Shown here in pieces: positions 34,823-49,955 of a stretch of 64,000 nucleotides of DNA. Below the pieces are notes generated by a model. The model saw nothing but the letters and a program-made list of their open reading frames with translations, searched no databases and was not told where the DNA came from. Every line of letters starts with the position of its first letter. Positions within the stretch are counted from its first letter, which is position 1. Made by a program: the position numbers and the translations under genes. Source of the stretch: a bacterium (lineage in GTDB: Bacteria > SM23-81 > DAOVCL01); NCBI GenBank assembly GCA_029932675.1, contig JAOZPP010000004.1, positions 12,157 to 76,156 of the forward strand, in the 5' to 3' direction.

Positions 34823-34961
34823 TCTCGTTCTCTCCCCCCTGGCCAAAGGAGCCATCCTTAAACAATGCATTATAGTGGTGAAAGAAGACCCTTTAGTAAC
34901 TAAGAACTATTGACTACCTGACTGCCGTTAGAGGTGAATTGATAGCTGCCCTTGGAGGTGA

Positions 34962-36359
34962 TTGAAATTGCCGCAATTCAACAAGATAACAGATGAGGTT
35001 TTGAGGGAGATCTCGGATATATGTGAGGTGACCACAGATACTGGGGTGACGGAAGCCTATGGGCGGGATGAGACATCTGACCTCTTCTCCCTCCCCGAGG
35101 CTGTGGTCAGGCCGACAAAGGCCGAACAGATCTCCCAACTCCTGAAGCTTGCCTCGCAGAGGCTCTTTCCAGTAACCCCTCGAGGATTGGGGACAGGCGT
35201 CTCCGGAGGGGCTATTCCGGTGGAAGGTGGACTGGTCATCTCCTTAGAGAAGATGAATCGGTTAAAGGATATCGACAAAGAGAATATGATGGCTGTGGTC
35301 GAACCAGGGTTGATCACTGGAGAGCTCCAAGGCAAGGTGGAGGAGTTGGGGCTCTTCTATCCCCCTGATCCGGCAAGCTTGGATTCCTGCAGCTTAGGGG
35401 GTAATGTGGCCGAGGGAGCAGGAGGCCCCCGCGCCTTTAAGTATGGCACCACCAAGGATTATGTCACTGGCCTGGAGTTGGCCTTAGCCTCTGGGGAACT
35501 AATTAGCTTAGGGGGAAAGATCATCAAGGATGTCTCCGGCTATAATCTCATTGGCACAATAATTGGCTCCGAGGGAACCTTAGGAATAATTACTTCTATC
35601 ACCCTAAGGCTCATCCCCCTCCCCCCCCACAAGGTTGACCTCCTTGTCCCCTTCCCTTCCCTGGAAAAGGCAGGGGAGACCGTCTCCCTCTTAGTGGAGA
35701 AGGGGATCGTCCCGGCCACCATCGAGTTTATGGAAAGGGAAGCCCTCTTAGCCTCAGAGCAGAAGATCAAGAGGGAGGTCCCCTTCAGGGAGAAAGCGGC
35801 CCAACTGCTCATTGAGATAGACGGATATAAAAAGGAGGAGCTGGAGGGGCTCTATGAAACTGTGGGAGAGATATGCCTGGACCAGGGGGCAGAGGATGTC
35901 TTAGTGGCCGACAACCGGCCAGACCAGGAGAGGATGTGGGAGGCCCGCCGGGAGATCCCCGAGGGCTTAGCCCTCCTCAGTCCGGTGATTGACAAGGAGG
36001 ATGTGGTCGTCCCCCGCAACCAGATAGCCACCTTCCTCAGGGCAAAAGGGGAGATAGCCAAAAAGTATGGGGTAAAGATCGTCTGCTTTGGCCATGCCGG
36101 TGATGGCAACATTCACACCAATGTCCTCAAAGAGGAGATGGCTGATGAGCAGTGGAAAAAGGTAAGAAAGGAGATAGACTATGAGCTTATCCGCACCGTC
36201 CTCTCCTTGGGAGGAACAATCACCGGGGAACATGGGATAGGGGTAGTGAAGAGGGAATATCTGAAGAAGTTCACCAATCCCACCACCCTCTCCCTGATGC
36301 GGGGGATAAAACAGGCCTTCGACCCCCAAGGCATAATGAACCCCGGGAAGGTCTTGTGA
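34962..36359 (+). CDS. FAD-binding oxidase, GlcD / D-lactate dehydrogenase-like
   Basis: 465 aa with an FAD_binding_4-type N-terminus (..VTPRGLGTGVSGGAIP..) and the C-terminal motif GTITGEHGIGVVKR. Confidence 0.85.
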   Translation: MKLPQFNKITDEVLREISDICEVTTDTGVTEAYGRDETSDLFSLPEAVVRPTKAEQISQLLKLASQRLFPVTPRGLGTGVSGGAIPVEGGLVISLEKMNRLKDIDKENMMAVVEPGLITGELQGKVEELGLFYPPDPASLDSCSLGGNVAEGAGGPRAFKYGTTKDYVTGLELALASGELISLGGKIIKDVSGYNLIGTIIGSEGTLGIITSITLRLIPLPPHKVDLLVPFPSLEKAGETVSLLVEKGIVPATIEFMEREALLASEQKIKREVPFREKAAQLLIEIDGYKKEELEGLYETVGEICLDQGAEDVLVADNRPDQERMWEARREIPEGLALLSPVIDKEDVVVPRNQIATFLRAKGEIAKKYGVKIVCFGHAGDGNIHTNVLKEEMADEQWKKVRKEIDYELIRTVLSLGGTITGEHGIGVVKREYLKKFTNPTTLSLMRGIKQAFDPQGIMNPGKVL

Positions 36360-36745
36360 TGGGGAAGAAAGAGGTTAAAAGTGCCTTTACTGAAGAAGGA
36401 AGGCAAGTTGAGTGGCGCCACCCCGGGGGTAAATTACGGGATTGGGGCCCCAAGTCATTAACAAATCAGGAACTTCTAGCGATCCTTATTTCTACAGGAA
36501 TACCAGGTAAAACTGCGGAAGATATTGCTAAGGAAATACTAGATAAATTTGGCTCCTTTAAAGGAATGGCAAACCAGCCGCTAGAAAAATTTCTCCAATT
36601 TAAAGGAATGGGAGACGTTAAAATTATTCGCATTGCAGCGGCTTTTGAGATAGCAAGAAGAATAACAGGGGAGGTTTTAGAAAAATATGAAGAGCAAAAA
36701 ACCCAAAATTCCGGGAAAAGCCACACGAATATCAAACCCCTTTGA
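36356..36745 (+). pseudogene. radC: RadC-family N-terminal helix-hairpin-helix fragment; the JAB/MPN domain is missing
   Basis: LTNQELLAILISTGIPGKTAEDIAKEILDKFGSFKGMANQPLEKFLQFKGMGDVKIIRIAAAFEIARRI matches the RadC N-domain. The ORF then runs into unrelated sequence and stops at 36745. No HNHPSG-type JAB motif occurs anywhere downstream. Confidence 0.5.
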
Positions 36746-39700
36746 CATCACTACTCATAGAACGGAGTGGACTTGTGCTGCCAAGCTTGCTGAGTGGATG
36801 AACTCCTACATTAAGGACAAGAATTTACCTTTGGGCACTGCAGAGGTAGAAACCATCCAGGAAGGTGACCGAAAACGAGTCGATATTATTCTATTTGATA
36901 GTCCAGCAAATCAAAAAGTGCTCTGCGTCATTGAAACCAAACAACCTTATTTTGATGTCTTTAATGAGAGCGAGCTCAAAGAACCTGCACGTAAAAAAGC
37001 CGTTAAGAGAAAAGCTCCGTACTTTGCTACCTGTAATTTCCAGTGGTTCATTTGGTTCAATACGGAGAGAGTGAACAAGATGGATCCAGAGGAAAGACAA
37101 ATTCTCGAAAAATATCACCTCTCGGAAATTGAGGATTTAGACTACATAGAGGAACCAAGGTTCAAGAATCCCATCATAACTGGGCTCAGTAAGTTCTTAC
37201 AGGAGCTAGTTGAGGTATCCAAGGGCAAAAAGCCTGAGCCATTACTTCCGATTGATGAGTTTCTGATATTTCGTCTCCATGAGAAAGTCAACAGACTTGC
37301 TCGCTATTACAGAGTCATAATAAGAGATGCTACTCATAAAGACACGAAGTTTCAAAGTAAACTCCAGAAATGGTTTATAGATCAACAATGGCAGTTTACC
37401 TGGAAAGATTCTGATTACGATAAGGTGGCGAGACAGACTGCTTACCTTCTAATCAACAAAATCCTCTTCTATTACCTACTTAAAGCAAAAAAGACTTACC
37501 TTGCTTCTCTAGAGATTCCTGAAGACTTGACAAAAGGTGGGCAACTTCAGGCACAATTGCAAGCTTATTTTAGCTATGTTTTGAAAAAGATCGACTATGA
37601 GACTATCTACAGCACCGATTTTATTGACCAGACGGCCTTCCCTGACAACAAAGAGGTTGTCTGTGAAATCAAAGACCTTGTTAATATCTTAAAAAGATAT
37701 GACTTTTCTGAAATAGGGTATGAAATCATAGGAAATATCTTCCAACGTCTCATCCCTCAGAAAGAACAGCACAAGTTAGGTCAATACTTCACAAATCCTG
37801 ACATCGTGGATCTCATTTTAAGATTTTGTTTGAAACATGAGAAGGATAAAATATTGGACCCGTCCTGTGGTGCCGGAACTTTCCTTATGAGGGCATATAA
37901 ACACAAAAAGATAATGAATAATAGACTCTCGCATAGGGATATTCTTGAAACTCTTTGGGGAGTAGATATTGCAAAGTTTCCATCTCACCTTGCTACAATA
38001 AATCTCGCACTACAAGATTTAGGAGAAGATAAGAATTACCCAAATATAGCTCAGGAAGACTTTTTTAATCTGCTTACTAGTCCTGAAGGATTAGAACTCC
38101 CTGAAAAATGGAGAAAAATTAGAGCAAAAACCCTCGGGGTGAAGGAAAGAGAGATCACTTATCCCAGATGGTTTGACTGTATTGTGGGGAACCCCCCATA
38201 CACAAGACAAGAAGAGATTCCAGATATTACAGGTAAGTTAAGTTATAAAAAGAAATTGATTAAAAGTGCTCTTTACAATGTAAATCACAAAAAGATTGCC
38301 ACTATTTCCAAAAGGGCGGGCATATATGTCTATTTCTTCATTCATGGAATGAAATTCTTACGGAATGGGGGAAGATTTGGTTTCATTGTTTCAAATTCTT
38401 GGCTTGATGTTGACTATGGGAGGGGACTGCAGGAATTCTTTTTGAAAAATTATAAAATCGTCGCCATCATTGAATCAAAGGTTGAACGATGGTTTGAAAC
38501 AGCGGATATAAACACTTGTATAGTAATACTTGAAAAATGTAAAGATACAAAACAACGGAATGAGAATTTCGTGAAGTTTGTTTACTTATTCAAACCGCTC
38601 CGTCATTTTGTCCCTCCGGCACAAAAGAGATGGGAAGAACAAATTAAACGAGTTGATACTATTGATAGTTTAATCAAAACAATCCTTGCCCATAAAGAGT
38701 TCTACCAAAATGAAGAAATAAGAATCTATCCTAAATTACAAAAAGAACTCTGGATGGAGGGCTATGATAAAAGGAATAAAAAATATGCTGGTTCAAAATG
38801 GGGTAAATATATTAGAGCACCAGAACCAATTATAAAAAAGATCTTGATGAATAGAAGATTATCTCTCCTGGGTTCTTTCGTCAAGGCTATTATGGAAGGC
38901 GAACCCACAGGTGCAAATGAATTCTTTTTTGTCACAAGAGAAATCATAAAGAAATTCAAAATAGAAAATACTTATTTGCATCCTGCGTTTAATAGTCCAA
39001 AGGATTCTAAATCAATACTTATTACACAAACAAACAGCTATAGTTGGAAACTTCTTACGAACGCTTCAAAAGAGGAGTTGAAGGGAACAAATATTTTGAA
39101 ATACATCAAATGGGGAGAAAGAAAAGGATTCAGGAAACACTATTTTAAGGAAGATATCTGGTATTCAAGAAGCGATAGAAAGGCAGATTTATTGATTCCG
39201 AGAGGGATATACCAGAGGTTTATTTGCTTCTACAATGTTGATGGTCTTATTGCAAGTGATAGGTTTGTTGAAATTTTCATGCGATCAAAAGAGCTGAGAG
39301 AAATTACCGGAGCTTTCCTTAACTCCACTCTGTATTTTCTTTTGCTTGAACTTTACTGTCGGACAAATTTGGGTCAAGGGGCTTTGGATATTCAACCAAC
39401 TGATATTAGAAAAATACCAATTCCAGATTTGACGGAACTTGATAAAAAGCTTGTTCAGCATATTCAAGAAGTCTTTGAGCAAGTTAGCAAAAGAGAGGTG
39501 AATGTTATATTTGAAGAACTCGGTGTCAATTCTCCAGGAGAAGTTTCCCTTGACAAGGTCAAACCTGACCGCAGGGAACTGGATAAGATCGTTATGGGGG
39601 ATATTTTAGGTTTGACGGAAGAGGAACAACTTGAAGTCTATCGTGCCGTCGTTGACCTGGTAAGTTCCCGGATTAAGAAGGCAAAGAGTGTAGAGCGGAA

Positions 39701-40169
39701 AAAGAAAATTAAGGGGGGCATAGATATTGATGCCTTTGTGAAGACAGTAATAGAGGGAATTGGAAAAAAGACTTTGGCAGAATTTTATCAAGAGAAAATA
39801 CTAACACAAAAACCACTTTACACGAAGAAACTCCCTAAACCCACGAATGAGGTGGGGTTTGAAGCGGAGTTGGGTTTGAAATTTGAGAAGGAAATCCACA
39901 AATATCGACTAAATTCAGGTAAAAAACATATTTTCTGCAAATCTGAGCCCGAAGCCCGCTATCTAAAAGTTTGGATAGAAGCGGGATTGGAAAGTGTCAA
40001 AGTTCCCAAAGATGAAGATCGTTTAGTTAAGATAGTCCCTCAATTGGAAAGATTGATGGAGAAAACCAAAAAGATAATAGAGTCCTATACTGACTCTATC
40101 CTCCAACCTAAGCTCCGCCAGAAAATCTTCCACCAAATCTGGCAGAAATTAACTGAAGGAATTGAATAA
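36687..40169 (+). CDS. Type IIG-like fused restriction endonuclease / N6-adenine DNA methyltransferase (Eco57I/MmeI-like architecture)
   Basis: 1160 aa. The N-terminal candidate PD-(D/E)xK motif is RVDIILFD..VIETKQP. MTase motif I is ILDPSCGAGTFLM and motif IV is VGNPPYTRQEE. An Eco57I-like segment (GRFGFIVSNSWLDVDYG) follows, then a long presumed TRD and about 170 extra residues after the family's usual ..KAKSV end. Confidence 0.65.
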   Translation: MKSKKPKIPGKATRISNPFDITTHRTEWTCAAKLAEWMNSYIKDKNLPLGTAEVETIQEGDRKRVDIILFDSPANQKVLCVIETKQPYFDVFNESELKEPARKKAVKRKAPYFATCNFQWFIWFNTERVNKMDPEERQILEKYHLSEIEDLDYIEEPRFKNPIITGLSKFLQELVEVSKGKKPEPLLPIDEFLIFRLHEKVNRLARYYRVIIRDATHKDTKFQSKLQKWFIDQQWQFTWKDSDYDKVARQTAYLLINKILFYYLLKAKKTYLASLEIPEDLTKGGQLQAQLQAYFSYVLKKIDYETIYSTDFIDQTAFPDNKEVVCEIKDLVNILKRYDFSEIGYEIIGNIFQRLIPQKEQHKLGQYFTNPDIVDLILRFCLKHEKDKILDPSCGAGTFLMRAYKHKKIMNNRLSHRDILETLWGVDIAKFPSHLATINLALQDLGEDKNYPNIAQEDFFNLLTSPEGLELPEKWRKIRAKTLGVKEREITYPRWFDCIVGNPPYTRQEEIPDITGKLSYKKKLIKSALYNVNHKKIATISKRAGIYVYFFIHGMKFLRNGGRFGFIVSNSWLDVDYGRGLQEFFLKNYKIVAIIESKVERWFETADINTCIVILEKCKDTKQRNENFVKFVYLFKPLRHFVPPAQKRWEEQIKRVDTIDSLIKTILAHKEFYQNEEIRIYPKLQKELWMEGYDKRNKKYAGSKWGKYIRAPEPIIKKILMNRRLSLLGSFVKAIMEGEPTGANEFFFVTREIIKKFKIENTYLHPAFNSPKDSKSILITQTNSYSWKLLTNASKEELKGTNILKYIKWGERKGFRKHYFKEDIWYSRSDRKADLLIPRGIYQRFICFYNVDGLIASDRFVEIFMRSKELREITGAFLNSTLYFLLLELYCRTNLGQGALDIQPTDIRKIPIPDLTELDKKLVQHIQEVFEQVSKREVNVIFEELGVNSPGEVSLDKVKPDRRELDKIVMGDILGLTEEEQLEVYRAVVDLVSSRIKKAKSVERKKKIKGGIDIDAFVKTVIEGIGKKTLAEFYQEKILTQKPLYTKKLPKPTNEVGFEAELGLKFEKEIHKYRLNSGKKHIFCKSEPEARYLKVWIEAGLESVKVPKDEDRLVKIVPQLERLMEKTKKIIESYTDSILQPKLRQKIFHQIWQKLTEGIE

Positions 40170-40355
40170 GGTGTAAAAGCAGTGGTAAAATTGAAGAAAT
40201 GGCGGGTTGAATGAAAGCGCTTGACCTACTTACGATGGGGGGTGGGAGGCTGATCCAAGATCCAGGTATGGGGCTGGGAAAGTCTGGGACGGAGGGTAGA
40301 GGACATCAAATCGAGAATAGTAGAGGGCTGAAAAATAGGCTAGTGAAAGCGAGAA

Positions 40356-40877
40356 GTGTGTGAGATGAAAGTAACCGCAGACGCATCTATTCTAATCCAC
40401 CTTGCAGCCATTGGAAGATTTTATCTATTGGAGGAGTTATTCGGTGAGGTAATGATCCCAGAAAGTGTCTATAAGGAGGTAGTTGTAGAAGGCTGGGGGC
40501 TTTCCGGTTCTTTAGAAACGGCGGAAGCCCTAAGAACGGGCCTTATAAAAGTAGGTGAAGTAATAGACAAGGAGAAAGTCAGAGAGTTCTCACAAAGATA
40601 TAGAGTCAGCGCAACCAATGCCGAGGTCATTCAATTATCAAAAGAGTTGAACTCTAAAATTGTTTTGGCCGATGAGGAAGAAGTTAGAGATGCTGCACAG
40701 GAAGCTGGCCTTCAAGTGAAAGGTTGTTTGGGCATACTTGTAGATTCAGTGAAAAATAAGATCATCTCTTCTCGACAGGCTGTCCAAGATATCGACAATT
40801 TAGTTGCATCAGGTTATCGCATTAGCAATGATATAATTGATGGATTGAAAAACACTTTAAGGAGATGGGACAGATGA
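40356..40877 (+). CDS. DUF3368-type PIN-like nuclease (toxin), copy 1
   Basis: DASILIHLAAIGRFYLLEELFGEVMIPESVYKEV.. and ..GCLGILVDSVKNKII match the DUF3368/COG2405 pattern. The likely start is ATG 40365. Confidence 0.75.
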   Translation: MCEMKVTADASILIHLAAIGRFYLLEELFGEVMIPESVYKEVVVEGWGLSGSLETAEALRTGLIKVGEVIDKEKVREFSQRYRVSATNAEVIQLSKELNSKIVLADEEEVRDAAQEAGLQVKGCLGILVDSVKNKIISSRQAVQDIDNLVASGYRISNDIIDGLKNTLRRWDR

Positions 40878-41092
40878 AAGCCTCCTTGATGATACCAGAA
40901 AGGATAAGGGAAAAGTTCCTGGGGGAGATACTGGATATGTATGCGCAAGGTGAGTTGGCTGCCAGCAAAGCTGCTCAGATGCTTGGCATACCGAGGGCTA
41001 CTTTCTATAGCCTATTGGCTGAAACAAACACCCCTCTCCCCAAAAAGCTTAATGATAGCATCAGAAAAGAGTTGGAAGAATTATTAAAGTGA
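40865..41092 (+). CDS. UPF0175-family antitoxin-like protein, copy 1
   Basis: 75 aa. ..ILDMYAQGELAASKAAQMLGIPRATFYSLLAE.. matches the UPF0175/COG2886 pattern. It overlaps the PIN ORF by 13 nt. Confidence 0.65.
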   Translation: MGQMKASLMIPERIREKFLGEILDMYAQGELAASKAAQMLGIPRATFYSLLAETNTPLPKKLNDSIRKELEELLK

Positions 41093-41223
41093 CACCTGAC
41101 CGCCGGGAAGTGGATAGAATCGTCTTTGAAGCCCTGAAATTAACTGAAAAGGAACAACTTGAAGTTCACCGGGCAGTGGGGGAGTTGGTGAAGAACAGGC
41201 TCGTTAAGGCAAGGAGTGTGTAG
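41089..41223 (+). pseudogene. orphan 3' tail of an Eco57I-family methyltransferase gene (relic 1)
   Basis: VTPDRREVDRIVFEALKLTEKEQLEVHRAVGELVKNRLVKARSV* parallels KPDRRELDKIVMGDILGLTEEEQLEVYRAVVDLVSSRIKKAKSV in the 1160-aa protein. It starts at a GTGA overlap with the antitoxin stop. Confidence 0.7.
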
Positions 41224-41241
41224 TACGGATACAGTGGATGG

Positions 41242-42363
41242 TTGCAGATGAGCGAATTGATGAAGGCAGATTATAAAGAACTTCTTGCAAAGGTTTCGGG
41301 TCTGCTTGAGCGGGCAAGACACGAAGCTGTAAGAAGGATTAATACGGTTATCGTAGAAACCTATTGGGAAATTGGAAGATTGATTGTAGAAGAGGAACAG
41401 AAGGGCAAAAAACGGGCCGAGTATGGTAAAAGGTTGTTACAGAAATTATCAATTGATTTGACAAAAAGATATGGACGGGGATTCTCAACCGACAATTTAG
41501 AGGCTATGAGAAAGTTTTACTTGATTTATCCTAGTTTTGGCAGGAAGATTTCCGAGACAATGTCTCGGAAATTAGGAAAGACTCAAGCTGATATCCCAGA
41601 GATTGAATTTCTGAAGAATCTTTCATGGTCTCACATTCGTGAAATTATAACACTTGAGGAACCTCTTGCAAGGTCTTTTTATGTGATAGAGACAATTAAA
41701 AATAACTGGTCAGTGAGGGAATTGAAGAGACAAAAAGGCTCCCTACTCTTTGAGAGACTTGCCCTGAGCAAAGAGAAAAAGAAGGTAATGGAGCTGGCAA
41801 AGAGAGGGCAGATTATTGAGAAGCCCGAGGATATAGTCAAAGACCCCTATGTATTGGAGTTCCTGGGTATCCCTGAGAGACATCACTATACTGAATCACA
41901 GTTGGAACAGGCTCTTATTGACCATCTTCAAGAATTTCTTTTAGAACTCGGTAAAGGCTTCACTTTTGTTGCCCGACAAAAGAGGATTACTATTGACAAC
42001 GAACATTTTTACATTGACCTGGTCTTTTACAACCGCATCGTGCGGTGTTTTGTCTTGATTGACCTCAAAGTAGGCAAGTTTACTCCGGCTGATACTGGGC
42101 AAATGAATTTTTATCTCAATTACATCAAGGCCAATGAAGTGATGGAGGATGAAAACCCTCCTGTGGGCATTCTTCTCTGCACTGAGGCTGACAGAAGCAG
42201 AGTCTTTGTAGAGTATGCCCTGGGAGGATTGGATAATAAAATTTTCGTCTCCAAATACAAATTGTATCTCCCGACGAAAAGAGAACTTGAGGCAGAAATC
42301 AAGAAAGAGACGGCTCGTTTACAACTTATTTCACCCAGGGAGATGAAAAGCAGCAAAGATTAG
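41242..42363 (+). CDS. YhcG/DUF1016-family PD-(D/E)xK nuclease-fold protein
   Basis: The N-terminal region reads INTVIVETYWEIGRLIVEEEQ.G..RAEYGK.LL..LS. The C-terminal region reads VKDPYVLEFLG..E..LE.ALIDHLQEFLLELGKGFTFVARQKRI..D...FYIDLVFYNR..RCFVLIDLKVGKF. The likely start is ATG 41248. Confidence 0.85.
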   Translation: MQMSELMKADYKELLAKVSGLLERARHEAVRRINTVIVETYWEIGRLIVEEEQKGKKRAEYGKRLLQKLSIDLTKRYGRGFSTDNLEAMRKFYLIYPSFGRKISETMSRKLGKTQADIPEIEFLKNLSWSHIREIITLEEPLARSFYVIETIKNNWSVRELKRQKGSLLFERLALSKEKKKVMELAKRGQIIEKPEDIVKDPYVLEFLGIPERHHYTESQLEQALIDHLQEFLLELGKGFTFVARQKRITIDNEHFYIDLVFYNRIVRCFVLIDLKVGKFTPADTGQMNFYLNYIKANEVMEDENPPVGILLCTEADRSRVFVEYALGGLDNKIFVSKYKLYLPTKRELEAEIKKETARLQLISPREMKSSKD

Positions 42364-42431
42364 GTTTTCTTAAATATAGGAATGATTCATCTTGAAGCTG
42401 AGGCATTTCCATTTTATAAAACACCTTAGCA

Positions 42432-43292
42432 GTGGCAATTGAGAATCTACTTGATACAGACTGGCGAGAGAAATTGAAATCTCTTGGCCTTGAGGGGTTT
42501 CTTGATCTCTTGGGCACAGAAAGGCTCGCACAGAAGAAGGCCCGGATGGCAAATCTTTTAAGAATTGCCAATCCCGATGAGGCACTTTATCGGGAGATCA
42601 TGGTTGCCCTGGGCTACAAAAACAATAAGGTTCAGTTTCTGGAGCTGGCACTAATACTACCCTATTCAGAGATTCGTGCCTTAAAAGATAGTGAAAGAAT
42701 TGAGAAGGCTTTACTCTATCGGGCAGGATTTCTGCAATCGAAAGATGGGCTTCCGGAGAATTTCGATGGTTCCCTGAAGATGGATCGCTCGGTATGGCAA
42801 CTCCGGGGCACAAGACCGGCAAATTTTCCTGCTACCAGAATAAAGGGTATCGCACCACTGCTCTCTGAGTCCTGCGAAACAGGGCTGTGCAAGCTAATCG
42901 AAGCGAAGATTGCTGACAACTACCTGCCGACCACAAATAGAAGATCCGCTGGTAGCTTCTGCAAAGAGCTCACAAAAATCTTTACTACGGGCGAGAGGAA
43001 AGCAGTGGGTCAAACAAGAGCTTTGGAAATCCTCTTTAACATAATCCTGCCGTTCTTTATGACTTATTTTGAAAGGGAGGGTAAACGAAAATATGCAGAG
43101 TTCCTCCTAAGCATTTACGATCAACACCCTATTCTCTCAGAGAACTCTGTTATCAGGGCGATGAAGGCTCAACTATTCGGTGAAGATAAAAAGAAAGCCA
43201 GGCAAGTGGTCAATTCAGTGAGGCGCTATATGGGGTTAATTCACTTGCACAATGTTGTATTGAAGGGAGAAAAGCTCGATGACTATTCCTGA
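42432..43292 (+). CDS. DUF2851-like protein (C-terminal half only)
   Basis: 286 aa with a GTG start. ALLYRAGFL.. and W.LRGTRPANFPATRIKGIAPLL resemble, from memory, the RP.NFP..RI.QLA block of DUF2851. The end overlaps the next ATG by 14 nt. Confidence 0.5.
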   Translation: MAIENLLDTDWREKLKSLGLEGFLDLLGTERLAQKKARMANLLRIANPDEALYREIMVALGYKNNKVQFLELALILPYSEIRALKDSERIEKALLYRAGFLQSKDGLPENFDGSLKMDRSVWQLRGTRPANFPATRIKGIAPLLSESCETGLCKLIEAKIADNYLPTTNRRSAGSFCKELTKIFTTGERKAVGQTRALEILFNIILPFFMTYFEREGKRKYAEFLLSIYDQHPILSENSVIRAMKAQLFGEDKKKARQVVNSVRRYMGLIHLHNVVLKGEKLDDYS

Positions 43293-46200
43293 CATCATCG
43301 ATAACAGCGCCGAGGGGCGCAGATTGGCCGATGTCTTGAAGGAAATTATTGTCCCCGGCACCAAAGTGTATATCGCTTCAGGCTATTTCAACCTGGAAGG
43401 TTTCAGACTCATTAGTGAGAAATTGAAGGAGACGCAAGGAGTGCGCCTTCTTCTTGGCCGGGCTTTATCCCCCCAGGATGTGCGTTCACCAAAGTTTTTC
43501 CTTGAAGAATTAAGAGAAGAGGCAGAGGCAAAGATGGGGACCCCAGAGGCCGAAGGTCTAATCCGGGAATTCCTCCGCTGGCTTGAGAACCCTGGGGTTG
43601 GGGTGAAGATCTACAACAAGGGATTTTATCACGGAAAATTCTATATCGTTGAAGGAGTTCCGGTTTTGGGAGCAGTGGCTATCTCTGGCTCTTCGAACTT
43701 CACCCAAGCTGGCCTTACCAGAAATACCGAATTCAACACCGTCTTAAAGCAGGGGAGCGCGGTAAAAGAAACAAAGCGGGTTTTTGACCGACTATGGAAT
43801 GAGAGCGAAGACTACAAACAGGACCTGAAATCGCTTTACTCCGATTTCACCGCCGCTTACAGTCCTTATGAAATATATATCAAGGCTCTCTACGCCTATT
43901 TTAGGGATAAGTTTGCTTCGGTTTCTCCAACTGATGAGGTTCCCAGCCCTATCGTTCTCACTGATTTTCAGCGCGACGGCTATTTAGCTGCCCTCGATAC
44001 CCTTGATCGCTATAGCGGTGTTCTGCTCTCCGACTCCGTGGGGTTAGGTAAAACATATCTTGCCCTGAAGCTTCTGGATGACTTTGCCTATAGGTTGAGA
44101 GAAAAGGCTCTGGTCATCTGTCCGGCGCAACTTAAGGGGATTCTTTGGGAACCCAAACTGAGAGAAGCCGGCATCAGAGCAGATATTGTCCACAGGGAGC
44201 GGGTGAGCCGGAAGGACTTCCCAATAGAAGAGTACCAAGATCACGACCTTATCGTCGTGGACGAGTCTCACAACTTTCGCAACTCCCAGACAAACTGTTG
44301 GAAAAACCTCTCCTTATGTGTGATAAGAGGTAAACCAAAGAAAGTAATACTTATCACTGCAACTCCTGTAAATAACTCCGTTTTTGACCTTTACAACCAG
44401 ATTCGCTTGATCACCAAGGACAGGGACAGTTTCTTCGCCGCGGCTGGTATCCCAAGCCTATGGGGCTATTTTCTTAGAGCAGATAAGGAGAAAGAGACTC
44501 TATACGATCTTTTAGAGGAAATAGCTGTTAGGCGCAGCCGGCCTTTTATCAAGAGGAACTATCCGGATGTAGCAATTGATGGTGAGCCGATAAGATTTCC
44601 AGAAAGGGAGCTTCACACAACCCGATACAACCTTGAGCAGACCTATCAGGGGCTTTACAAAGAATGCTCTCAAACCATCGAAAACTTGACCCTGGCAAGC
44701 TACAACATTGAGTCGTATCGGAAGGAGATCAGACAAGAGCAGCTTGAGCTTTTCGAGCATATCAACAAGGCCTTTCTTGCCAAAGGGTGGTCTGAAAAAG
44801 AGAGCAAGGACTTCTTAATGAAATTGGGTAGGAATGAGGCGGTAATTTCGATTTTGAAGGTGCTCTTTTTAAAGCGGCTTGAATCCAGCATTGAGGCCTT
44901 TAGAATCAGCATAGAAAGATTGGTTGATTTTCAGAGGAAATTTCTTCAGGTCTTTAAGGAAGGAAGAATACTGGATAGAGACGCCTATCGCAAGTTCTTC
45001 CTTCAAAGCGGTGAGGATGAATCTACAGAGGAAGGTGAGAGCATCTCCACTGTCCTAGAGAAGTTGCCACAGATAAATTTGGAAGATTTCGATGTAGAGG
45101 CAATCAAACGCTCTGTTCAGAAGGATATCGGTGCTCTTGAGCAAATTTACAAAAAGGTCGAGAGAATAAAATCGGGGAAAGATACGAAGCTGCAGATTCT
45201 CAAAGAGAAATTAAGCGGTGAACTAAAGGGAAAGAAAGTCATCATCTTTACCTATTTTAAGGATACTGCTCGTTACCTTTATCGCTGGCTAGGCGGCAAC
45301 AGGGAGTGGCTGGAAAGTGTGGTCTCGCCTGAGGAGCGAAGGGCGGTGGAAAGTTTCTTGAGCCACGCCTCTCTTTCATCCCCGAACATCTCAATCACGG
45401 ATAGTGGGATAGACCCTGATGAGCGTAAGAACAGAATCATGCGCTTCTCCCCGATAGCCAACGGTCGCCCTGAGCTAAAAGGAACAGAAAGGGAGATTCA
45501 AATCCTCATCTCAACCGATGTCCTCTCGGAAGGCCAGAATCTGCAGGATGCTGATACGGTAATAAATTATGATCTTCCCTGGAATCCTGTTCGCCTCATT
45601 CAGCGAGTGGGAAGGATCGATCGTCTCAAGTCTCCGCACCCTCTGGTGCATCTTTACAACTTCTTCCCTGAAGACGCATTGGAATCCCTCCTAGGCATTC
45701 TGGAGAGGCTTTATCAGAAACTCGATGCCATTAATCGCAGTGTAGGCTTAGATGTAAGCACCTTAGGGGAGACGCCTACGCCGAAGGATTTTGGCTTCAT
45801 TCGTGACCTTTTTGCAGGAAAAGCCGAGGTTTTAGAGGAGTTAGAAGGGATGTCCGAACTGGCCGTCGGTGAGTTCCTTAAACAAGAACTCTTGCAGTTT
45901 TTAGAAAAGGTAGGTGAAGAGAAGATAAGGAGAATACCCAATGGTGTGGGAAGTGGTCTACACAAAGAGGGACAGCATGGACTTTTCGTGGCTTTCAAAG
46001 ACAAGGAGCGCCATTATTGGTGCTATTACGACTTCAAGACTGGTAAGGTCCTTGAGAACAAACTCCAGGTCATTCGACTTATCAGATGCGAAGAGAGTGA
46101 ACCACGGATAGAGCCGGATTTTGATGTCTATGAGGTCATTGAGAAAGCGAAGAGACATATCCTCGCCCGTTTGCGCACTTCTTCCTTAAAGCCGCCCATG

Positions 46201-46473
46201 CTTAAGGCACCTCAAAACCAAATCGTAAACTGGTTACAAGGATTAGCTTCCAAAGCAACTGATCTTCTTGAATATTTTCGCGAACCTTTGCCAGAGTTAT
46301 ATCTGCGGGAGCTTCGTTCCTTATGGATTAACAGGGCCTCATCAGAGGAGGTACTCATCCTTAAGCTAAGGGAGTTCAAAGAGTCCCATCCAATTTCACC
46401 AGCAATGGAAAGAACTCCACCGCCTGAAGAGCCCAAGGTCAAAGTTGTTTGCTATCTTGCAGTTATGAGTTAG
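43279..46473 (+). CDS. fused PLD-family (HKD) nuclease domain and SNF2-family helicase
   Basis: 1064 aa. The HKD motif is YHGKFYIVEG..GSSNFT. Helicase motifs are GLGKT (I), VVDESHNFRN (II), ITATPVNNS (III) and STDVLSEGQNLQDADTVINYDLPWNPVRLIQRVGRIDR (V/VI). Confidence 0.85.
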   Translation: MTIPDIIDNSAEGRRLADVLKEIIVPGTKVYIASGYFNLEGFRLISEKLKETQGVRLLLGRALSPQDVRSPKFFLEELREEAEAKMGTPEAEGLIREFLRWLENPGVGVKIYNKGFYHGKFYIVEGVPVLGAVAISGSSNFTQAGLTRNTEFNTVLKQGSAVKETKRVFDRLWNESEDYKQDLKSLYSDFTAAYSPYEIYIKALYAYFRDKFASVSPTDEVPSPIVLTDFQRDGYLAALDTLDRYSGVLLSDSVGLGKTYLALKLLDDFAYRLREKALVICPAQLKGILWEPKLREAGIRADIVHRERVSRKDFPIEEYQDHDLIVVDESHNFRNSQTNCWKNLSLCVIRGKPKKVILITATPVNNSVFDLYNQIRLITKDRDSFFAAAGIPSLWGYFLRADKEKETLYDLLEEIAVRRSRPFIKRNYPDVAIDGEPIRFPERELHTTRYNLEQTYQGLYKECSQTIENLTLASYNIESYRKEIRQEQLELFEHINKAFLAKGWSEKESKDFLMKLGRNEAVISILKVLFLKRLESSIEAFRISIERLVDFQRKFLQVFKEGRILDRDAYRKFFLQSGEDESTEEGESISTVLEKLPQINLEDFDVEAIKRSVQKDIGALEQIYKKVERIKSGKDTKLQILKEKLSGELKGKKVIIFTYFKDTARYLYRWLGGNREWLESVVSPEERRAVESFLSHASLSSPNISITDSGIDPDERKNRIMRFSPIANGRPELKGTEREIQILISTDVLSEGQNLQDADTVINYDLPWNPVRLIQRVGRIDRLKSPHPLVHLYNFFPEDALESLLGILERLYQKLDAINRSVGLDVSTLGETPTPKDFGFIRDLFAGKAEVLEELEGMSELAVGEFLKQELLQFLEKVGEEKIRRIPNGVGSGLHKEGQHGLFVAFKDKERHYWCYYDFKTGKVLENKLQVIRLIRCEESEPRIEPDFDVYEVIEKAKRHILARLRTSSLKPPMLKAPQNQIVNWLQGLASKATDLLEYFREPLPELYLRELRSLWINRASSEEVLILKLREFKESHPISPAMERTPPPEEPKVKVVCYLAVMS

Positions 46474-46583
46474 AAACTAAATGGGTAAACTTAGAAAGGT
46501 TATGAAAACCTGGGGATATCAGGGTAGAGGACATCAAATCGAGAATAGTAGAGGGCTGAAAAATAGGCTAGTGAAAGCGAGAA

Positions 46584-47105
46584 GTGTGTGAGATGAAAGT
46601 AACCGCAGACGCATCTATTCTAATCCACCTTGCAGCCATTGGAAGATTTTATCTATTGGAGGAGTTATTCGGTGAGGTAATGATCCCAGAAAGTGTCTAT
46701 AAGGAGGTAGTTGTAGAAGGCTGGGGGCTTTCCGGTTCTTTAGAAACGGCGGAAGCCCTAAGAACGGGCCTTATAAAAGTAGGTGAAGTAATAGACAAGG
46801 AGAAAGTCAGAGAGTTCTCACAAAGATATAGAGTCAGCGCAACCAATGCCGAGGTCATTCAATTATCAAAAGAGTTGAACTCTAAAATTGTTTTGGCCGA
46901 TGAGGAAGAAGTTAGAGATGCTGCACAGGAAGCTGGCCTTCAAGTGAAAGGTTGTTTGGGCATACTTGTAGATTCAGTGAAAAATAAGATCATCTCTTCT
47001 CGACAGGCTGTCCAAGATATCGACAATTTAGTTGCATCAGGTTATCGCATTAGCAATGATATAATTGATGGATTGAAAAACACTTTAAGGAGATGGGACA
47101 GATGA
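46584..47105 (+). CDS. DUF3368-type PIN-like nuclease (toxin), copy 2
   Basis: The protein is identical to that of 40356..40877. Confidence 0.75.
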   Translation: MCEMKVTADASILIHLAAIGRFYLLEELFGEVMIPESVYKEVVVEGWGLSGSLETAEALRTGLIKVGEVIDKEKVREFSQRYRVSATNAEVIQLSKELNSKIVLADEEEVRDAAQEAGLQVKGCLGILVDSVKNKIISSRQAVQDIDNLVASGYRISNDIIDGLKNTLRRWDR

Positions 47106-47320
47106 AAGCCTCCTTGATGATACCAGAAAGGATAAGGGAAAAGTTCCTGGGGGAGATACTGGATATGTATGCGCAAGGTGAGTTGGCTGCCAGCAAAGCT
47201 GCTCAGATGCTTGGCATACCGAGGGCTACTTTCTATAGCCTATTGGCTGAAACAAACACCCCTCTCCCCAAAAAGCTTAATGATAGCATCAGAAAAGAGT
47301 TGGAAGAATTATTAAAGTGA
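47093..47320 (+). CDS. UPF0175-family antitoxin-like protein, copy 2
   Basis: The protein is identical to that of 40865..41092. Confidence 0.65.
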   Translation: MGQMKASLMIPERIREKFLGEILDMYAQGELAASKAAQMLGIPRATFYSLLAETNTPLPKKLNDSIRKELEELLK

Positions 47321-47451
47321 CACCTGACCGCAGGGAACTGGATAGAATCATCTTCGAGGCTCTGGGCTTGACTGAGGGGAAGCAACTTGAGGTCTAGCGG
47401 GCGGTGGTGGAGTTGGTGAAGAACAGACTGGTTAAGGCAAGGAGTGTATAA
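47317..47451 (+). pseudogene. orphan methyltransferase 3' tail (relic 2) with an in-frame stop
   Basis: It reads VTPDRRELDRIIFEALGLTEGKQLEV*RAVVELVKNRLVKARSV*, with a TAG at 47395..47397. I count about 25 mismatches in about 120 nt against relic 1. Confidence 0.7.
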
Positions 47452-47469
47452 TTTCACAAAGAGCAAAAC

Positions 47470-49158
47470 ATGACGAGAAAAGAAATACAAAGGCTTATCA
47501 AGCAACCTGAAGGACAATTCTTTGAGAAGAAGAGTTGCCTCGAAAAGAAAGCGGATGGAAGAACAAGAAGCCGTAAGGCGAAAGATGTAGCTAAGGATGT
47601 GGCAGAGACTTTATCAGCTATGGCTAATGCTGATGGAGGTTCGCTAATCCTCGGTGTGGAGGATGATGACACAGTCAGCGGTGTTAACCATCCCAGCGAC
47701 CGTATCCAAGTTATTGAGAAAGCTCCTTTGAATCTTGTTAGACCACCACTGAAAACGACTGTAGCGAGAACATATATTCAAAAGCAAATGTTACTGGTAT
47801 TCAGTGTTGACTGGAGTCCAAAGGTTCACCAGCTCACCGATGGTAGATACCTGCTCAGGGTTGGTGACAGCAACATACCATTTCCTGCAAAGGATATTGA
47901 GGCCATCAAAAGGTCTAAATTACAAGCACTATGGGAAAACCAAATTGTTGAAGGAGCAACTGTTGAAGACCTCGACCATGAGCTTATGAGAGAATTAGCA
48001 AGCAAAGTTGGGATAAACGCCAACATAGAGAAATTCCTGCAACACTATAAGCTTATTGAGTATTATAACCGCACAATAAAACTAAAACGGGCTGCACTGC
48101 TTTTGTTTGGGAAAGACCCACTAAGGTGGCATCCGCGTTGTGGTATAGATTTTGTGAAGTTCGAGGGAACAGAAAGGAAGTATGGAGGGGCGCTTAATAT
48201 TGTGAAAAGAGAAAGAATCGAGACCCCACTTGTTTTACTTATCGAAGAGACCTACAAGGTAATCGCCCCTCATATCAAGGAAAGGCAGATTCTACACGAT
48301 CTATTTTTCGTGGAGCAGCTTGAGTATCCATCCTTTGCCTGGCAGGAGGCAATAGTCAATGCTGTAGCTCATCGAGATTACAGTATATTAGGTCTTTCCA
48401 TTGAAATATGGATGTTCGATGACCGGATCGAAGTGAGAAGCCCTGGGCTGCTCCCTGAGCCTGTAACTATTGAAAGACTTCTTAAAAGGGAGCGTATTCA
48501 TGCAAGCCGCAATCCACTAATTGTCAGAGTCCTGACAGATTTGGGGTATATGCGTGAGATGGGAGAAGGAATCCCAAGAATGTTTGAAGAGATGGAGAAA
48601 AACGGACTCTATTCACCAGAACTAAGGATTGAAGCCGATTCCATATTTACTGTGGTTTTGAAGAATCAACCCGTTTATACTCCGGATGATTTGCGATGGC
48701 TTGAAAGGTATTCAACTATCCCTTTGAGTTCGAATCAGAAAAGGATTTTGCTCTTTGCAAGAGTTCATGGAATGCGCTTTACGAGTCGAGATTACCAGAA
48801 GATTTGTAGTGTAGACATCTATTCAGCATCACGTGATATCAAAGATCTTATGAGAAAGGGCATAGTACGCTTACAAAAGAAGGGTGGAAGAATTTATGAG
48901 ATATTGGAAGGCAAGGAAGATGAGTTTCCTGAATTTCCCGAAGGGTACCTTGAAGTAAGAATGATTGTCGAAAGAAAGGGATATGTAAAAAACGAAGACT
49001 TGAGGGGTGTTTTGAAGCTATCAAGAGTTCAAGCCAAGTGGTTGTTCCAAAAATACTTAAATTTAGGTCTTTTGAAAATGGAGGGTCAGGGGCGGGGGGC
49101 AAGGTATGTTCCGACAGAAAAATTCTGGAAGACGAGAAATGGACAATTCAAAAAATAA
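47470..49158 (+). CDS. AlbA_2 (Schlafen-like) / HATPase_c_4 / winged-HTH protein ('RecG-like' putative regulator family)
   Basis: 562 aa with E.QFFEKKS.., AKDVAETLSAMANADGGSLILGVEDD and AWQEAIVNAVAHRDYS..IEIWMFDDRIEVRSPG, plus two C-terminal wHTH-like segments. Confidence 0.75.
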   Translation: MTRKEIQRLIKQPEGQFFEKKSCLEKKADGRTRSRKAKDVAKDVAETLSAMANADGGSLILGVEDDDTVSGVNHPSDRIQVIEKAPLNLVRPPLKTTVARTYIQKQMLLVFSVDWSPKVHQLTDGRYLLRVGDSNIPFPAKDIEAIKRSKLQALWENQIVEGATVEDLDHELMRELASKVGINANIEKFLQHYKLIEYYNRTIKLKRAALLLFGKDPLRWHPRCGIDFVKFEGTERKYGGALNIVKRERIETPLVLLIEETYKVIAPHIKERQILHDLFFVEQLEYPSFAWQEAIVNAVAHRDYSILGLSIEIWMFDDRIEVRSPGLLPEPVTIERLLKRERIHASRNPLIVRVLTDLGYMREMGEGIPRMFEEMEKNGLYSPELRIEADSIFTVVLKNQPVYTPDDLRWLERYSTIPLSSNQKRILLFARVHGMRFTSRDYQKICSVDIYSASRDIKDLMRKGIVRLQKKGGRIYEILEGKEDEFPEFPEGYLEVRMIVERKGYVKNEDLRGVLKLSRVQAKWLFQKYLNLGLLKMEGQGRGARYVPTEKFWKTRNGQFKK

Positions 49159-49215
49159 AATGGACAGCTCTGCGTTTCTTAAGATCCATTTTTTAAGATG
49201 TCCATTTTAGGCAAG

Positions 49216-49329
49216 ACACCTTAGCAGTGGCAATTGAGAATCTACTTGATACAGATTGGCGAGAGAAATTGAAATCTCTTGGCCTTGAGAGGTTTCTTGA
49301 TTTCTTGGGCACAGAAAGGTTCGCACAGA
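49216..49329 (+). pseudogene. duplicate of the 5' end of the DUF2851-like gene (fragment)
   Basis: 114 nt with 4 mismatches to 42421..42534. The frame ends shortly afterwards. Confidence 0.75.
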
Positions 49330-49330
49330 G

Positions 49331-49494
49331 GATTATCCAGACGACAAACCTCACCCAAGTGCACTCTTCTTAGGTTGGATTAAAAGCAAGCCCTTGCATG
49401 TTTTAGCTGCCTTAGATGAAACCAATGAATGGGCTTACATTATTACCGCATATGAACCAAGCCTTGAATACTTTGAGCCTGATTTGAAAACAAA
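49331..49494 (+). pseudogene. C-terminal fragment of a DUF4258-type toxin
   Basis: It reads DYPDDKPHPSALLLGWIKSKPLHVLAALDETNEWAYIITAYEPSLEYFEPDLKTK, with no start codon or N-terminal part. Confidence 0.5.
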
Positions 49495-49566
49495 GAACAA
49501 CTTGAAGTTTACCGGGCAGTGGGGGAGTTGGTAAAGAACAGGCTCGTTAAGGTGAGGAGTGTGTGA
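49495..49566 (+). pseudogene. orphan methyltransferase 3' tail (relic 3)
   Basis: It reads EQLEVYRAVGELVKNRLVKVRSV* and is near-identical at the DNA level to the end of relic 1. Confidence 0.7.
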
Positions 49567-49593
49567 TATGGATGCAGTAAAAATGATTAACCC

Positions 49594-49791
49594 TTGCTCC
49601 GAGTGATGTTATCATCCCCCAGGTACAGATCCTATGATCGAACGGGGAAGGGAAAAATAACCAGCGGCGAGATACAGAAGATGTTCGATGTTAGTAGGGA
49701 TACAGCAAACAGGTATTTGAAGAAGTTATCAAAGCTGAAGTTGATAGAAAGGCACGGAGAGGGTAGATCCACATATTACGTTCTTAGTTAA
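49594..49791 (+). pseudogene. wHTH C-terminal fragment of an AlbA_2/HATPase_c_4-family gene
   Basis: GKITSGEIQKMFDVSRDTANRYLKKLSKLKLIERHGEGRSTYYVL resembles the tail of that family. It has a TTG 'start' and no upstream domains. Confidence 0.4.
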
Positions 49792-49792
49792 C

Positions 49793-49814
49793 TTGCGTCA
49801 GATTTGCGTCAGAT
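49793..49814. repeat. 11-bp tandem repeat TTGCGTCAGAT x2 at the right edge of the island
   Basis: Read directly from the sequence. Confidence 0.8.
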
Positions 49815-49955
49815 TTTGGCTGGGTTTAAAGGAGTTCCAGCAGAGGGGAATTGGGAGATCTTAATTTCTTAGGTGCAGAAAAACCTAAGAGGTTTCTGCA
49901 CCATCATTTCAAATACACAAAAGCTCATTATTAACCTAAAAAGGAGGTCAACAAA

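Follow-up and report, generated by a model that had tools for sequence, protein, structure and literature searches.

Restriction-modification genes can reportedly travel as mobile units without mobility genes of their own, a view associated with Kobayashi and co-workers, and hsd in the immigration control region of Escherichia coli is said to undergo allelic replacement. How defence islands lacking mobility genes are assembled is more generally a stated open question (Johnson et al. 2023, PMC10250203). The core defence hotspots cDHS1 and cDHS2 of Pseudomonas aeruginosa are without mobile-element genes, no mobility gene is detectable in 29-47% of cDHS sites (PMC10250203), and the type I restriction-modification hotspot #36 of E. 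coli picks up further systems (Hochhauser et al. 2023, PMC10121019). Here we analyse a 64,000-nucleotide (nt) stretch, hereafter the window, of contig JAOZPP010000004.1 (positions 12,157 to 76,156) in the bacterial assembly GCA_029932675.1, a metagenome-assembled genome (MAG) of 116 contigs from a hydrothermal-vent metagenome, in which a low-G+C stretch at 36356-49955 begins with radCN, a short gene encoding only the N-terminal domain of RadC, followed by a large restriction-methylase gene. We consider it likely that this is a recombinase-less defence locus, in which two restriction-like systems have been joined and then rearranged repeatedly by host recombination acting at the conserved ends of genes. 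The first system (36356-40169) would be a two-gene operon of radCN, translationally coupled to a single-chain type IIG restriction-methylase, and the second (40293-46473) would comprise a methylase, a variable slot, a DUF2851 protein and a helicase-nuclease with HKD and SNF2 domains (HKD-SNF2), its methylase having been deleted down to the last 45 codons.

Like the core defence hotspots, the locus is low in G+C and holds several systems of variable content without a mobility gene; it may also share with them a fixed chromosomal site beside a core gene. Unlike them, it is conserved on its left flank only (in the three species available), its anchor is a resident restriction module rather than two core genes, and its junctions can be read, since they lie in the conserved ends of the defence genes themselves. 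With the restriction units of the Kobayashi type it shares the position of restriction genes between housekeeping genes, the lack of a recombinase and a probable exchange of alleles by homologous recombination, the difference being that both crossovers would fall inside the module, in radCN and in the conserved 3' block of the methylase gene, and not in flanking core genes.

The G+C content of the stretch from 36356 to 49955 is 0.424, against 0.531 to its left and 0.517 to its right, and returns to 0.52 at asnA. Within the island it is uneven, being 0.372 at 36440-39554 and 0.45 at 41243-46473. Measured in 3-kb windows over the whole 3.03-Mb genome, the methylase part is extreme both in tetranucleotide distance (99th percentile) and in G+C (0.8th percentile), and the SNF2 part is mildly unusual (84-88th percentile). 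All genes from 29753 to 51083, and hence every feature of the window described below, are on the forward (+) strand. Scans with Pfam and PADLOC, which covered every island open reading frame (ORF) of at least 65 amino acids (aa), identified an ORF with the UPF0758_N domain only, an Eco57I-family type IIG enzyme, two PIN(DUF3368)/UPF0175 toxin-antitoxin pairs, YhcG, DUF2851, HKD-SNF2, an AlbA_2/HATPase_c_4 protein and a winged helix-turn-helix (wHTH) fragment, and found no recombinase or transposase domain among these frames. A tRNA search over 28-58 kb and an Rfam search over 34-52 kb were both empty, and no repeat pair of the attachment-site (att) or terminal type brackets the island. An earlier, sequence-only reading of this DNA had described a single-strand island of patchy composition with a similar list of defence genes and without integrase, transposase, tRNA or att duplication; the scans bear this out, and its five hand counts of G+C are all exact. 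It had also supposed that the island begins where radC is truncated. The drop in G+C, however, begins at the start of the radC-like ORF (G+C 0.415) and not at its end, and the short gene belongs to a stand-alone family and to the low-G+C module rather than to the backbone.

This short gene, radCN (36356-36745, 129 aa), matches Pfam PF20582 only (UPF0758_N, a helix-hairpin-helix (HhH) domain; 3e-17, 62.9 bits, cut-off 27.1). Its start overlaps the stop of a glcD-like gene, and 59 nt at its 3' end (36687-36745) are shared with the start of the methylase gene, an overlap already noted from the letters and confirmed here, as is the restriction of the ORF to the HhH part. The JAB/MPN domain PF04002 is absent from the ORF by Pfam and, as had been observed for the far side of the island, from the rest of this contig. 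The genome contains two JAB domains, on contigs C63 and C21. The former belongs to an intact 233-aa RadC, the N-domain of which is only ~29% identical to radCN; the latter belongs to a second RadC-like gene (C21:709-1334, L002), close to the contig end, with an intact JAB domain and an HhH N-part interrupted by two TAG stops. Neither complements radCN as a missing JAB half, so that the genome search proposed in the sequence-only reading returned these two copies and no counterpart to the short gene. The sister family (G003:C258, G005:C96 and G006:C94) has a full-length radC, in a frame of 239-251 aa, and ~1 kb downstream of it a glcD-like gene 39% identical to the one in the window. The order is the reverse of glcD-radCN, and the resemblance is probably a coincidence.

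Proteins of 97-137 aa with PF20582 alone form more than 2,372 clusters in the protein database. In a sample of 400 genomes the distribution of scores is bimodal, with the radCN clade at 127-193 bits and canonical RadC N-domains at 58-88 bits; the radCN-clade frames are of 100-127 aa in every sampled genome outside this genus (159-186 aa from stop to stop within it), and the canonical matches lie in frames of 210-340 aa in nearly every case. Thus radCN resembles RadC/UPF0758 (YicR) in its homology to the N-terminal HhH domain, and differs from it in being without JAB/MPN, in forming a separate and much more conserved clade, and in having a restriction enzyme, instead of the usual RadC neighbourhood, as its context. 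Over an 81-codon core the proportion of synonymous differences (pS) is 0.85, at saturation, and that of non-synonymous differences (pN) 0.14, a pattern of purifying selection. Since synonymous sites are saturated while pN is low, radCN, as judged by its substitution pattern, is a working protein and not a relic. An AlphaFold2 model (pLDDT 84) has a helical HhH fold with a long C-terminal helix, and a fold search with it returned weak matches only (E >0.2), to the HhH domains of XPF/ERCC1, MutY and LigA, which are consistent with the Pfam assignment without deciding it. A sequence search yielded no relatives among solved structures, and radCN has no match in either the plasmid or the phage collection.

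A scan with one genome per species gave 67 radCN loci in more than 15 phyla, the homologues being 58-82% identical, always short, and usually followed on the same strand by a large methylase gene. Overall, radCN lies directly upstream of a type IIG/IIL methylase in ~85-90% of loci, usually overlapping it. By a strict motif (a regular expression of the DPxCGxG/NPPY type), a methylase is present in 33 of the 42 loci with at least 2.5 kb of downstream sequence, and in 30 of these 33 its start overlaps radCN or directly adjoins it (-65 to +1 nt). Overlaps of 4-65 nt at the start of the methylase gene are seen repeatedly in different phyla and with two classes of methylase. A tblastn search brought in further methylases that are split or divergent, after which four clear exceptions are left. 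In the 400-genome sample, ~3% of genomes have radCN; at least 11 of the 13 evaluable copies are followed directly by a methylase of 1064-1160 aa, and radCN precedes 6 of 7 full-length methylases of the class found in the window (class A). The upstream neighbours of radCN are unrelated housekeeping genes that differ in every lineage, and in the cleanest cases (Dissulfurispira thermophila; a 701-kb JGI contig) the radCN-methylase pair stands alone between housekeeping genes. In other phyla a toxin-antitoxin cassette can stand directly before such a methylase, or separate it from radCN. The radCN tree groups by host phylum, places the window copy apart from its congeners, and shows both methylase classes behind radCN. 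Since radCN groups by host phylum and sits before both classes, it looks, on phylogeny and gene order, like a generic front end, with methylases being exchanged behind it. This pairing appears to be undescribed, and a search of open-access texts for a link between the RadC N-domain and restriction found nothing relevant. Two side observations concern these loci. In D. thermophila (AP022873, L092, 10297-16226) the radCN-linked methylase is split by an IS21 element (rve and IstB) near the boundary of the target recognition domain (TRD) and the C-terminal block, the last ~220 aa being in a separate 180-aa ORF. In four Desulfobacterota-type MAGs (L039, L046, L053 and L074) radCN follows a fused PALP-CysRS gene without a methylase; what lies downstream of it varies (amidase, Fic, PALP or small ORFs of toxin-antitoxin-like size), and in L046, L053 and L074 a conserved 323-aa ORF follows on the opposite strand. 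These loci may represent a radCN-marked variable site that lacks a methylase.

The methylase of the window (36687-40169, 1160 aa) is assigned to class A of the type IIG restriction-methylases by its Pfam domains (Eco57I, 4e-24; N6_Mtase, 2e-20; MmeI_Mtase), by a PADLOC REase_MTase_IIG match (1e-41, spanning residues 211-946 only), by a D...ExK motif and by its conservation profile. It consists of an N-terminal part with a PD-ExK motif, a gamma-class N6-adenine methyltransferase (MTase) domain with the motifs DPxCGxG and NPPY, a hypervariable TRD, a conserved C-terminal block and an extension. The N-terminal PD-(D/E)xK domain is assigned by motif alone, RVDIILFD...VLCVIETK, which is kept across the class A homologues; within the family aa 810-950, the TRD, are hypervariable and aa 955-1005 form the conserved block. 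A search of solved structures with the methylase sequence gave generic MTase matches only. In class B methylases an MmeI-like motif takes the place of the class A D...ExK motif, and the N-terminal domains of the two classes are unrelated apart from a shared lysine-rich leader, MKK(S/T)KLx(E/G)K..(S/T)R(I/M)P, right after radCN (36687-36760 in the window, and in homologues). The N-terminal PD-ExK-type motif, the gamma-class MTase and the variable C-terminal TRD are as in the described type IIG/IIL enzymes of the MmeI/Eco57I kind (PMC2582602, PMC2731913, PMC4833311), as is the swapping of TRDs between close relatives, seen here between two congeneric species; the window enzyme, known from its sequence, differs from those described in having the small HhH protein radCN encoded upstream and overlapping its start.

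The history of this first system is best followed in a comparison of the window genome with two other species of its genus, G001 and G002. Both have, at the same site, dxs, glcD, a radC-like gene of 117-118 aa and a homologous methylase of 1155-1180 aa; the radCN start overlaps the glcD stop identically in both, and the overlap with the methylase start is present also. The radCN-methylase pair is thus resident at this site in the whole genus, and G002 contains a second such pair elsewhere. The glcD-like FAD oxidase gene of the left backbone flank (34962-36359, G+C 0.543) is 87-90% identical to those of G002 and G001 at the aa level and is syntenic with dxs and the genes upstream, and this dxs-glcD flank is conserved in all three species; the right flank differs or lies on other contigs. 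Downstream of the methylase the content varies: G002 has a tail, a 135-aa ORF and a DUF2851 fragment, and G001 a tail and another ORF. In G002 the G+C drop is the same and begins at the short gene. The orthologous G002 methylase (L015, G002:C24, 10292-13825) carries one in-frame TAG that divides it into ORFs of 568 and 606 aa, and the G002 system is probably decaying, unless the TAG is a sequencing error.

Across glcD and as far as nt 80 of radCN, nucleotide identity to G001 and G002 is 0.75-0.87 (mostly ~0.8 or more). Between ~36440 and ~39554 it is only 0.37-0.75 (mostly 0.4-0.65), and at 39636-40085 it is back at 0.81-0.87. The tract of low identity (36440-39554) covers the radCN core and the nuclease, MTase and TRD domains of the methylase; the 3' arm of the methylase gene that follows (39555-40185) is orthologous in the genus and 82.6-84.7% identical to G001 and G002, the identity resuming at 39555. 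The left breakpoint lies just past the codons for WRHPGGKLR, the most conserved part of radCN, and the right one at the codons for KVKPDRRELD, in the block right after the hypervariable TRD. We infer from this identity profile a homeologous allele replacement of 3.1 kb, in which the centre of system 1 would have been swapped in this lineage for a diverged allele, with both crossovers inside the module and in its two most conserved stretches. The only stretch in which G001 and G002 differ from one another is 38968-39485, the same TRD. The radCN core of the window is nearer to Nitrospirota copies (74.5% at the nt and 79% at the aa level) than to those of the congeners (60% nt), and does not group with the congeners in the tree.

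The second system is recognised by comparison with loci of other phyla, where its kind occurs intact. In L110, L112, L114 and L115 the order is a class C methylase, that is a nuclease-less enzyme of the Eco57I/MmeI type of 1146-1243 aa, then 0-4 variable genes, DUF2851 and HKD-SNF2, among housekeeping genes without a recombinase; DUF2851 is of 261-286 aa in intact systems and missing in L115. In the window the corresponding genes are YhcG (DUF1016 and PDDEXK; 41242-42363; Pfam YhcG_C and DUF1016_N, PADLOC PDC-S02 4e-144), which occupies the slot, a DUF2851 protein of 286 aa (42432-43292, PF11013) and the 1064-aa HKD(PLD)-SNF2 helicase-nuclease (43279-46473; Pfam PLDc_2, SNF2-rel_dom and Helicase_C, PADLOC C3a139 'HKD+Snf2' 1.5e-88), the full-length homologues of which are 79-87% identical. 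From the orthologues of 261-286 aa that precede HKD-SNF2 in L110, L111, L112 and L114 it follows that the DUF2851 protein of the window is full length for this system, and a reading of it as N-terminally truncated was rejected. Of the methylase there remains tail A (41086-41222), the last 45 codons with the stop, 78% identical to the C-terminus of the L112 methylase. The L112 methylase ends in the sequence of tails A and B of the window (78-84% over 45 aa) and has its stop in the same place. Derivation of the tails from the resident class A enzyme, the end of which they do not match, and from class B (MmeI-like) methylases, again without a match, was rejected.

The system shares with DISARM class 1, which is composed of the SNF2 helicase DrmD, the N6-adenine methylase DrmMI and the PLD nuclease DrmC, the joining of a nuclease-less Eco57I-type methylase with SNF2 and PLD/HKD functions, and there are partial PADLOC matches to DrmD and DrmMI; no match to DrmA or DrmB (DUF1998) was found among the island proteins. 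Unlike DISARM, it has SNF2 and PLD fused in one chain and DUF2851 as a conserved third component, and in the window its methylase is a 45-codon tail. By analogy it may represent a minimal DISARM-like or type I-like layout with HKD-SNF2 as nuclease-motor. PADLOC 2.0 has no model for the DUF2851 component, and we found nothing relevant on DUF2851 in defence in open-access texts.

Behind system 1, the sequence can be read as three units of the form (toxin-antitoxin cassette)-(methylase tail)-(slot gene)-(DUF2851 5' end). Unit 1, intact except for its methylase, consists of a PIN/antitoxin pair, tail A, YhcG, DUF2851 and HKD-SNF2. Unit 2 has the same pair, tail B (47314-47450, with an in-frame TAG; 84% to the L112 C-terminus), an AlbA_2/Schlafen and HATPase_c_4 protein of 562 aa identified by Pfam (47470-49158), which would be a displaced slot cassette, and, as the right arm of the displaced slot, a DUF2851 5' fragment (49198-49332, 92.6% identical to 42405-42537). 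Unit 3 is made of a C-terminal fragment of a DUF4258 toxin (49331-49495; PF14076, 2.4e-9, profile positions 31-71 of 71), the shorter methylase remnant tail C (49492-49578, 90% to tail A over 87 nt) and a wHTH fragment (49594-49791) that matches the final 47 residues of the Fic protein in L046 (45% identity, E 6e-12) and represents the C-terminal end of a Fic-family protein; the wHTH fragment had been considered as a second AlbA_2 copy, but has no similarity to the AlbA_2 protein of the window. Directly past the stop of this fragment, at the right edge of the island, an 11-bp unit, TTGCGTCAGAT, stands twice in tandem (49794-49815). Units 2 and 3 would be two decayed copies of system 2. Since each unit holds a slot gene between a methylase 3' end and a DUF2851 5' end, slot cassettes have most likely been exchanged and piled up through these two arms and through the toxin-antitoxin repeats described below. 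In L111, which has an SNF2 of 87% identity, DUF2851-SNF2 is directly preceded by an AlbA_2 C-terminus with 93% identity to that of the window; additional tail remnants precede slot genes in L110 and L112, and one lies behind the methylase in each of G001 and G002. Tail B is 84.7% identical at the nt level to the G002 tail, and on this comparison the deletion of the methylase is older than the split of the three species. The intactness of DUF2851 and SNF2 despite so old a loss hints at continued use. The downstream side of the HKD-SNF2 system also collects cassettes, because a DarT-Macro pair (L114, 12373-14042) and a Polbeta-HepT pair (L112, 12682-13507) lie directly behind it.

Units 1 and 2 open with a perfect 811-bp repeat. 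Copy 1 (40293-41103) encodes a PIN/DUF3368 toxin (40356-40877) and a UPF0175 antitoxin (40865-41092), runs 18 nt into tail A, and is 100% identical to copy 2 (46521-47331; toxin 46584-47105, antitoxin 47093-47320). The two ORFs of the pair overlap by 13 nt, and the pair matches PADLOC PDC-S70 at 5e-28, with UPF0175 at 31.7 bits (cut-off 27.9) and DUF3368 at 24.9 bits, below its cut-off of 27.3. Identity stops 18 nt into the tails, beyond which A and B are only ~72% alike. The repeat may have arisen by a recent unequal crossover, or by single-crossover insertion into a resident PIN/antitoxin pair of a circular 6.2-kb piece, which would have carried tail A, YhcG, DUF2851, SNF2 and PIN/antitoxin; perfect repeats would also make the 6.2-kb piece deletable by host recombination.

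How, then, should the left part of the locus be understood? The sequence-only reading, in which a foreign island had inserted into a resident full-length radC, removed its JAB half and so started at the point of truncation, does account for an ORF confined to HhH that reads into the methylase start and for the lack of a JAB remnant on the contig. We nevertheless give it almost no credence, given that the same short gene with a methylase stands at the same place, with the same drop in G+C, in both congeners, and that the short gene is found at over 60 loci in other phyla with unrelated genes upstream of it, is itself low in G+C, is under purifying selection and has so little identity to the intact RadC that this genome encodes on C63. 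For the left part, the congeners thus supply the refutation that the sequence-only reading had itself named, relatives of the same gene order with an equally short radC-like gene. What stands of that reading is a compositionally foreign, mosaic defence locus with content varying between congeners past the methylase; the radC truncation and the fresh insertion of the left part do not. A rather unlikely alternative, though far from negligible, is that radCN is a housekeeping gene that marks a preferred landing site and has no functional tie to the methylase. It would fit the finding that four loci of a single lineage and one Gemmatimonadota genome keep radCN but have no methylase, and the grouping of radCN by host phylum rather than by methylase class. 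A housekeeping gene, however, would hardly be confined to ~3% of sampled genomes, with upstream neighbours that change in every lineage and an island-like G+C, nor would a mere landing site explain the recurrent overlaps of radCN with two methylase classes or the N-terminal leader that both classes share directly after it.

The same weighing applies to the locus as a whole. Low G+C, defence cargo, toxin-antitoxin cassettes, fragments at the right edge and the 11-bp tandem repeat could all mark the entire 13.6 kb as one integrated mobile element (an integrative and conjugative or mobilizable element, or a prophage remnant) whose recombinase was lost or lies outside. We regard this as improbable, for no integrase, transposase, tRNA or terminal repeat accompanies it, its first 3.8 kb have orthologues throughout the genus and reach the identity level of the backbone at either end of the module, and the same modules occur among housekeeping genes without recombinases in other phyla. 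An artefact of assembly, with chimeric edges or a misplaced segment between the 811-bp repeats, deserves thought in a MAG of so many contigs, where the perfect repeat collapses to a single Logan unitig, and yet is very improbable: in run X1 the stretch 34500-40322 lies on one Logan contig and that from 49260 to beyond 52500 on another, the depth being a uniform 23-28 throughout the island and its flanks; two other species show the same left junction; and the repeat unitig has a depth of 40.7, ~1.7x, as two copies would give. Because single contigs cross both edges at even depth, the edges are no chimera, either at 36.7 or at 49.8 kb, where the sequence-only reading had allowed for one.

Several points nonetheless weigh against a defence locus rearranged by host recombination around a radCN-methylase module. 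The synteny comparison over glcD-radC-...-asnA found the left flank shared, but the right flank is non-syntenic in the relatives, so that an empty site is not definable: asnA is in neither congener, and in these the DUF192-pmbA flank is found on different contigs, next to different genes. The asnA gene itself (49956-51083, G+C 0.527), the probable right backbone flank, is 74-77% identical in G004 and G006 of the same phylum, and its distribution is patchy, with 74-79% identity in two same-phylum and two unrelated genomes. No donor allele for the replaced tract was found. Between phyla the median radCN identity is 69% at the nt level and no exact match to the window copy exceeds 20 nt, and homologous recombination across phyla would therefore be inefficient; with synonymous sites saturated, a general role for radCN as a DNA-level recombination site across phyla is not supported, and recombination at radCN between closer donors is possible. 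The link between radCN and the methylase is drawn from gene context; L039, L046, L053 and L088 keep radCN without any methylase, one class A-like methylase (G280) is without radCN, and radCN does not co-diverge with methylase class. Lastly, the order of the 6.2-kb segment between the perfect repeats comes from the assembly alone.

If a recombination-built defence locus is nevertheless accepted, its functions can be sketched. System 1 would be a type IIG restriction-methylase with radCN as its HhH partner, and radCN would be a DNA-binding accessory or a regulator, which binds DNA or times expression; the translational coupling fits a fixed stoichiometry or an ordered synthesis. The whole locus might then act as layered anti-phage defence. 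A broader and more tentative proposal, which we hold to be possible though somewhat doubtful, is that radCN is a dedicated partner of nuclease-bearing type IIG/IIL methylases in many phyla, and that conserved ends of defence genes serve as portable homology arms. On the first count radCN might be a DNA-binding subunit or an establishment regulator in a two-component form of what has been presumed to be a one-protein system; on the second, the arms at which RecA-type recombination swaps specificities and cassettes would be radCN paired with the C-terminal block of the methylase, and the methylase tail paired with the 5' end of DUF2851.

Recombinase-less defence hotspots (PMC10250203, PMC10121019) and type IIG enzymes with swappable TRDs are already known. 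What appears to be new is the conserved radCN partner, the position of junctions in the conserved ends of defence genes, and the methylase-slot-DUF2851-HKD-SNF2 arrangement with tail-flanked cassettes. For the assembly of islands without mobility genes, the locus offers junctions that can be read: an allele swap bounded by two conserved stretches within a restriction module, slot cassettes between a methylase tail and a DUF2851 5' end, and the same tail remnants in unrelated phyla. The methylase-DUF2851-HKD-SNF2 triad is widespread and is possibly a new system, and if radCN should indeed be needed for the function or control of its neighbour, the annotation and cloning of the supposedly single-protein type IIG/IIL enzymes would change.

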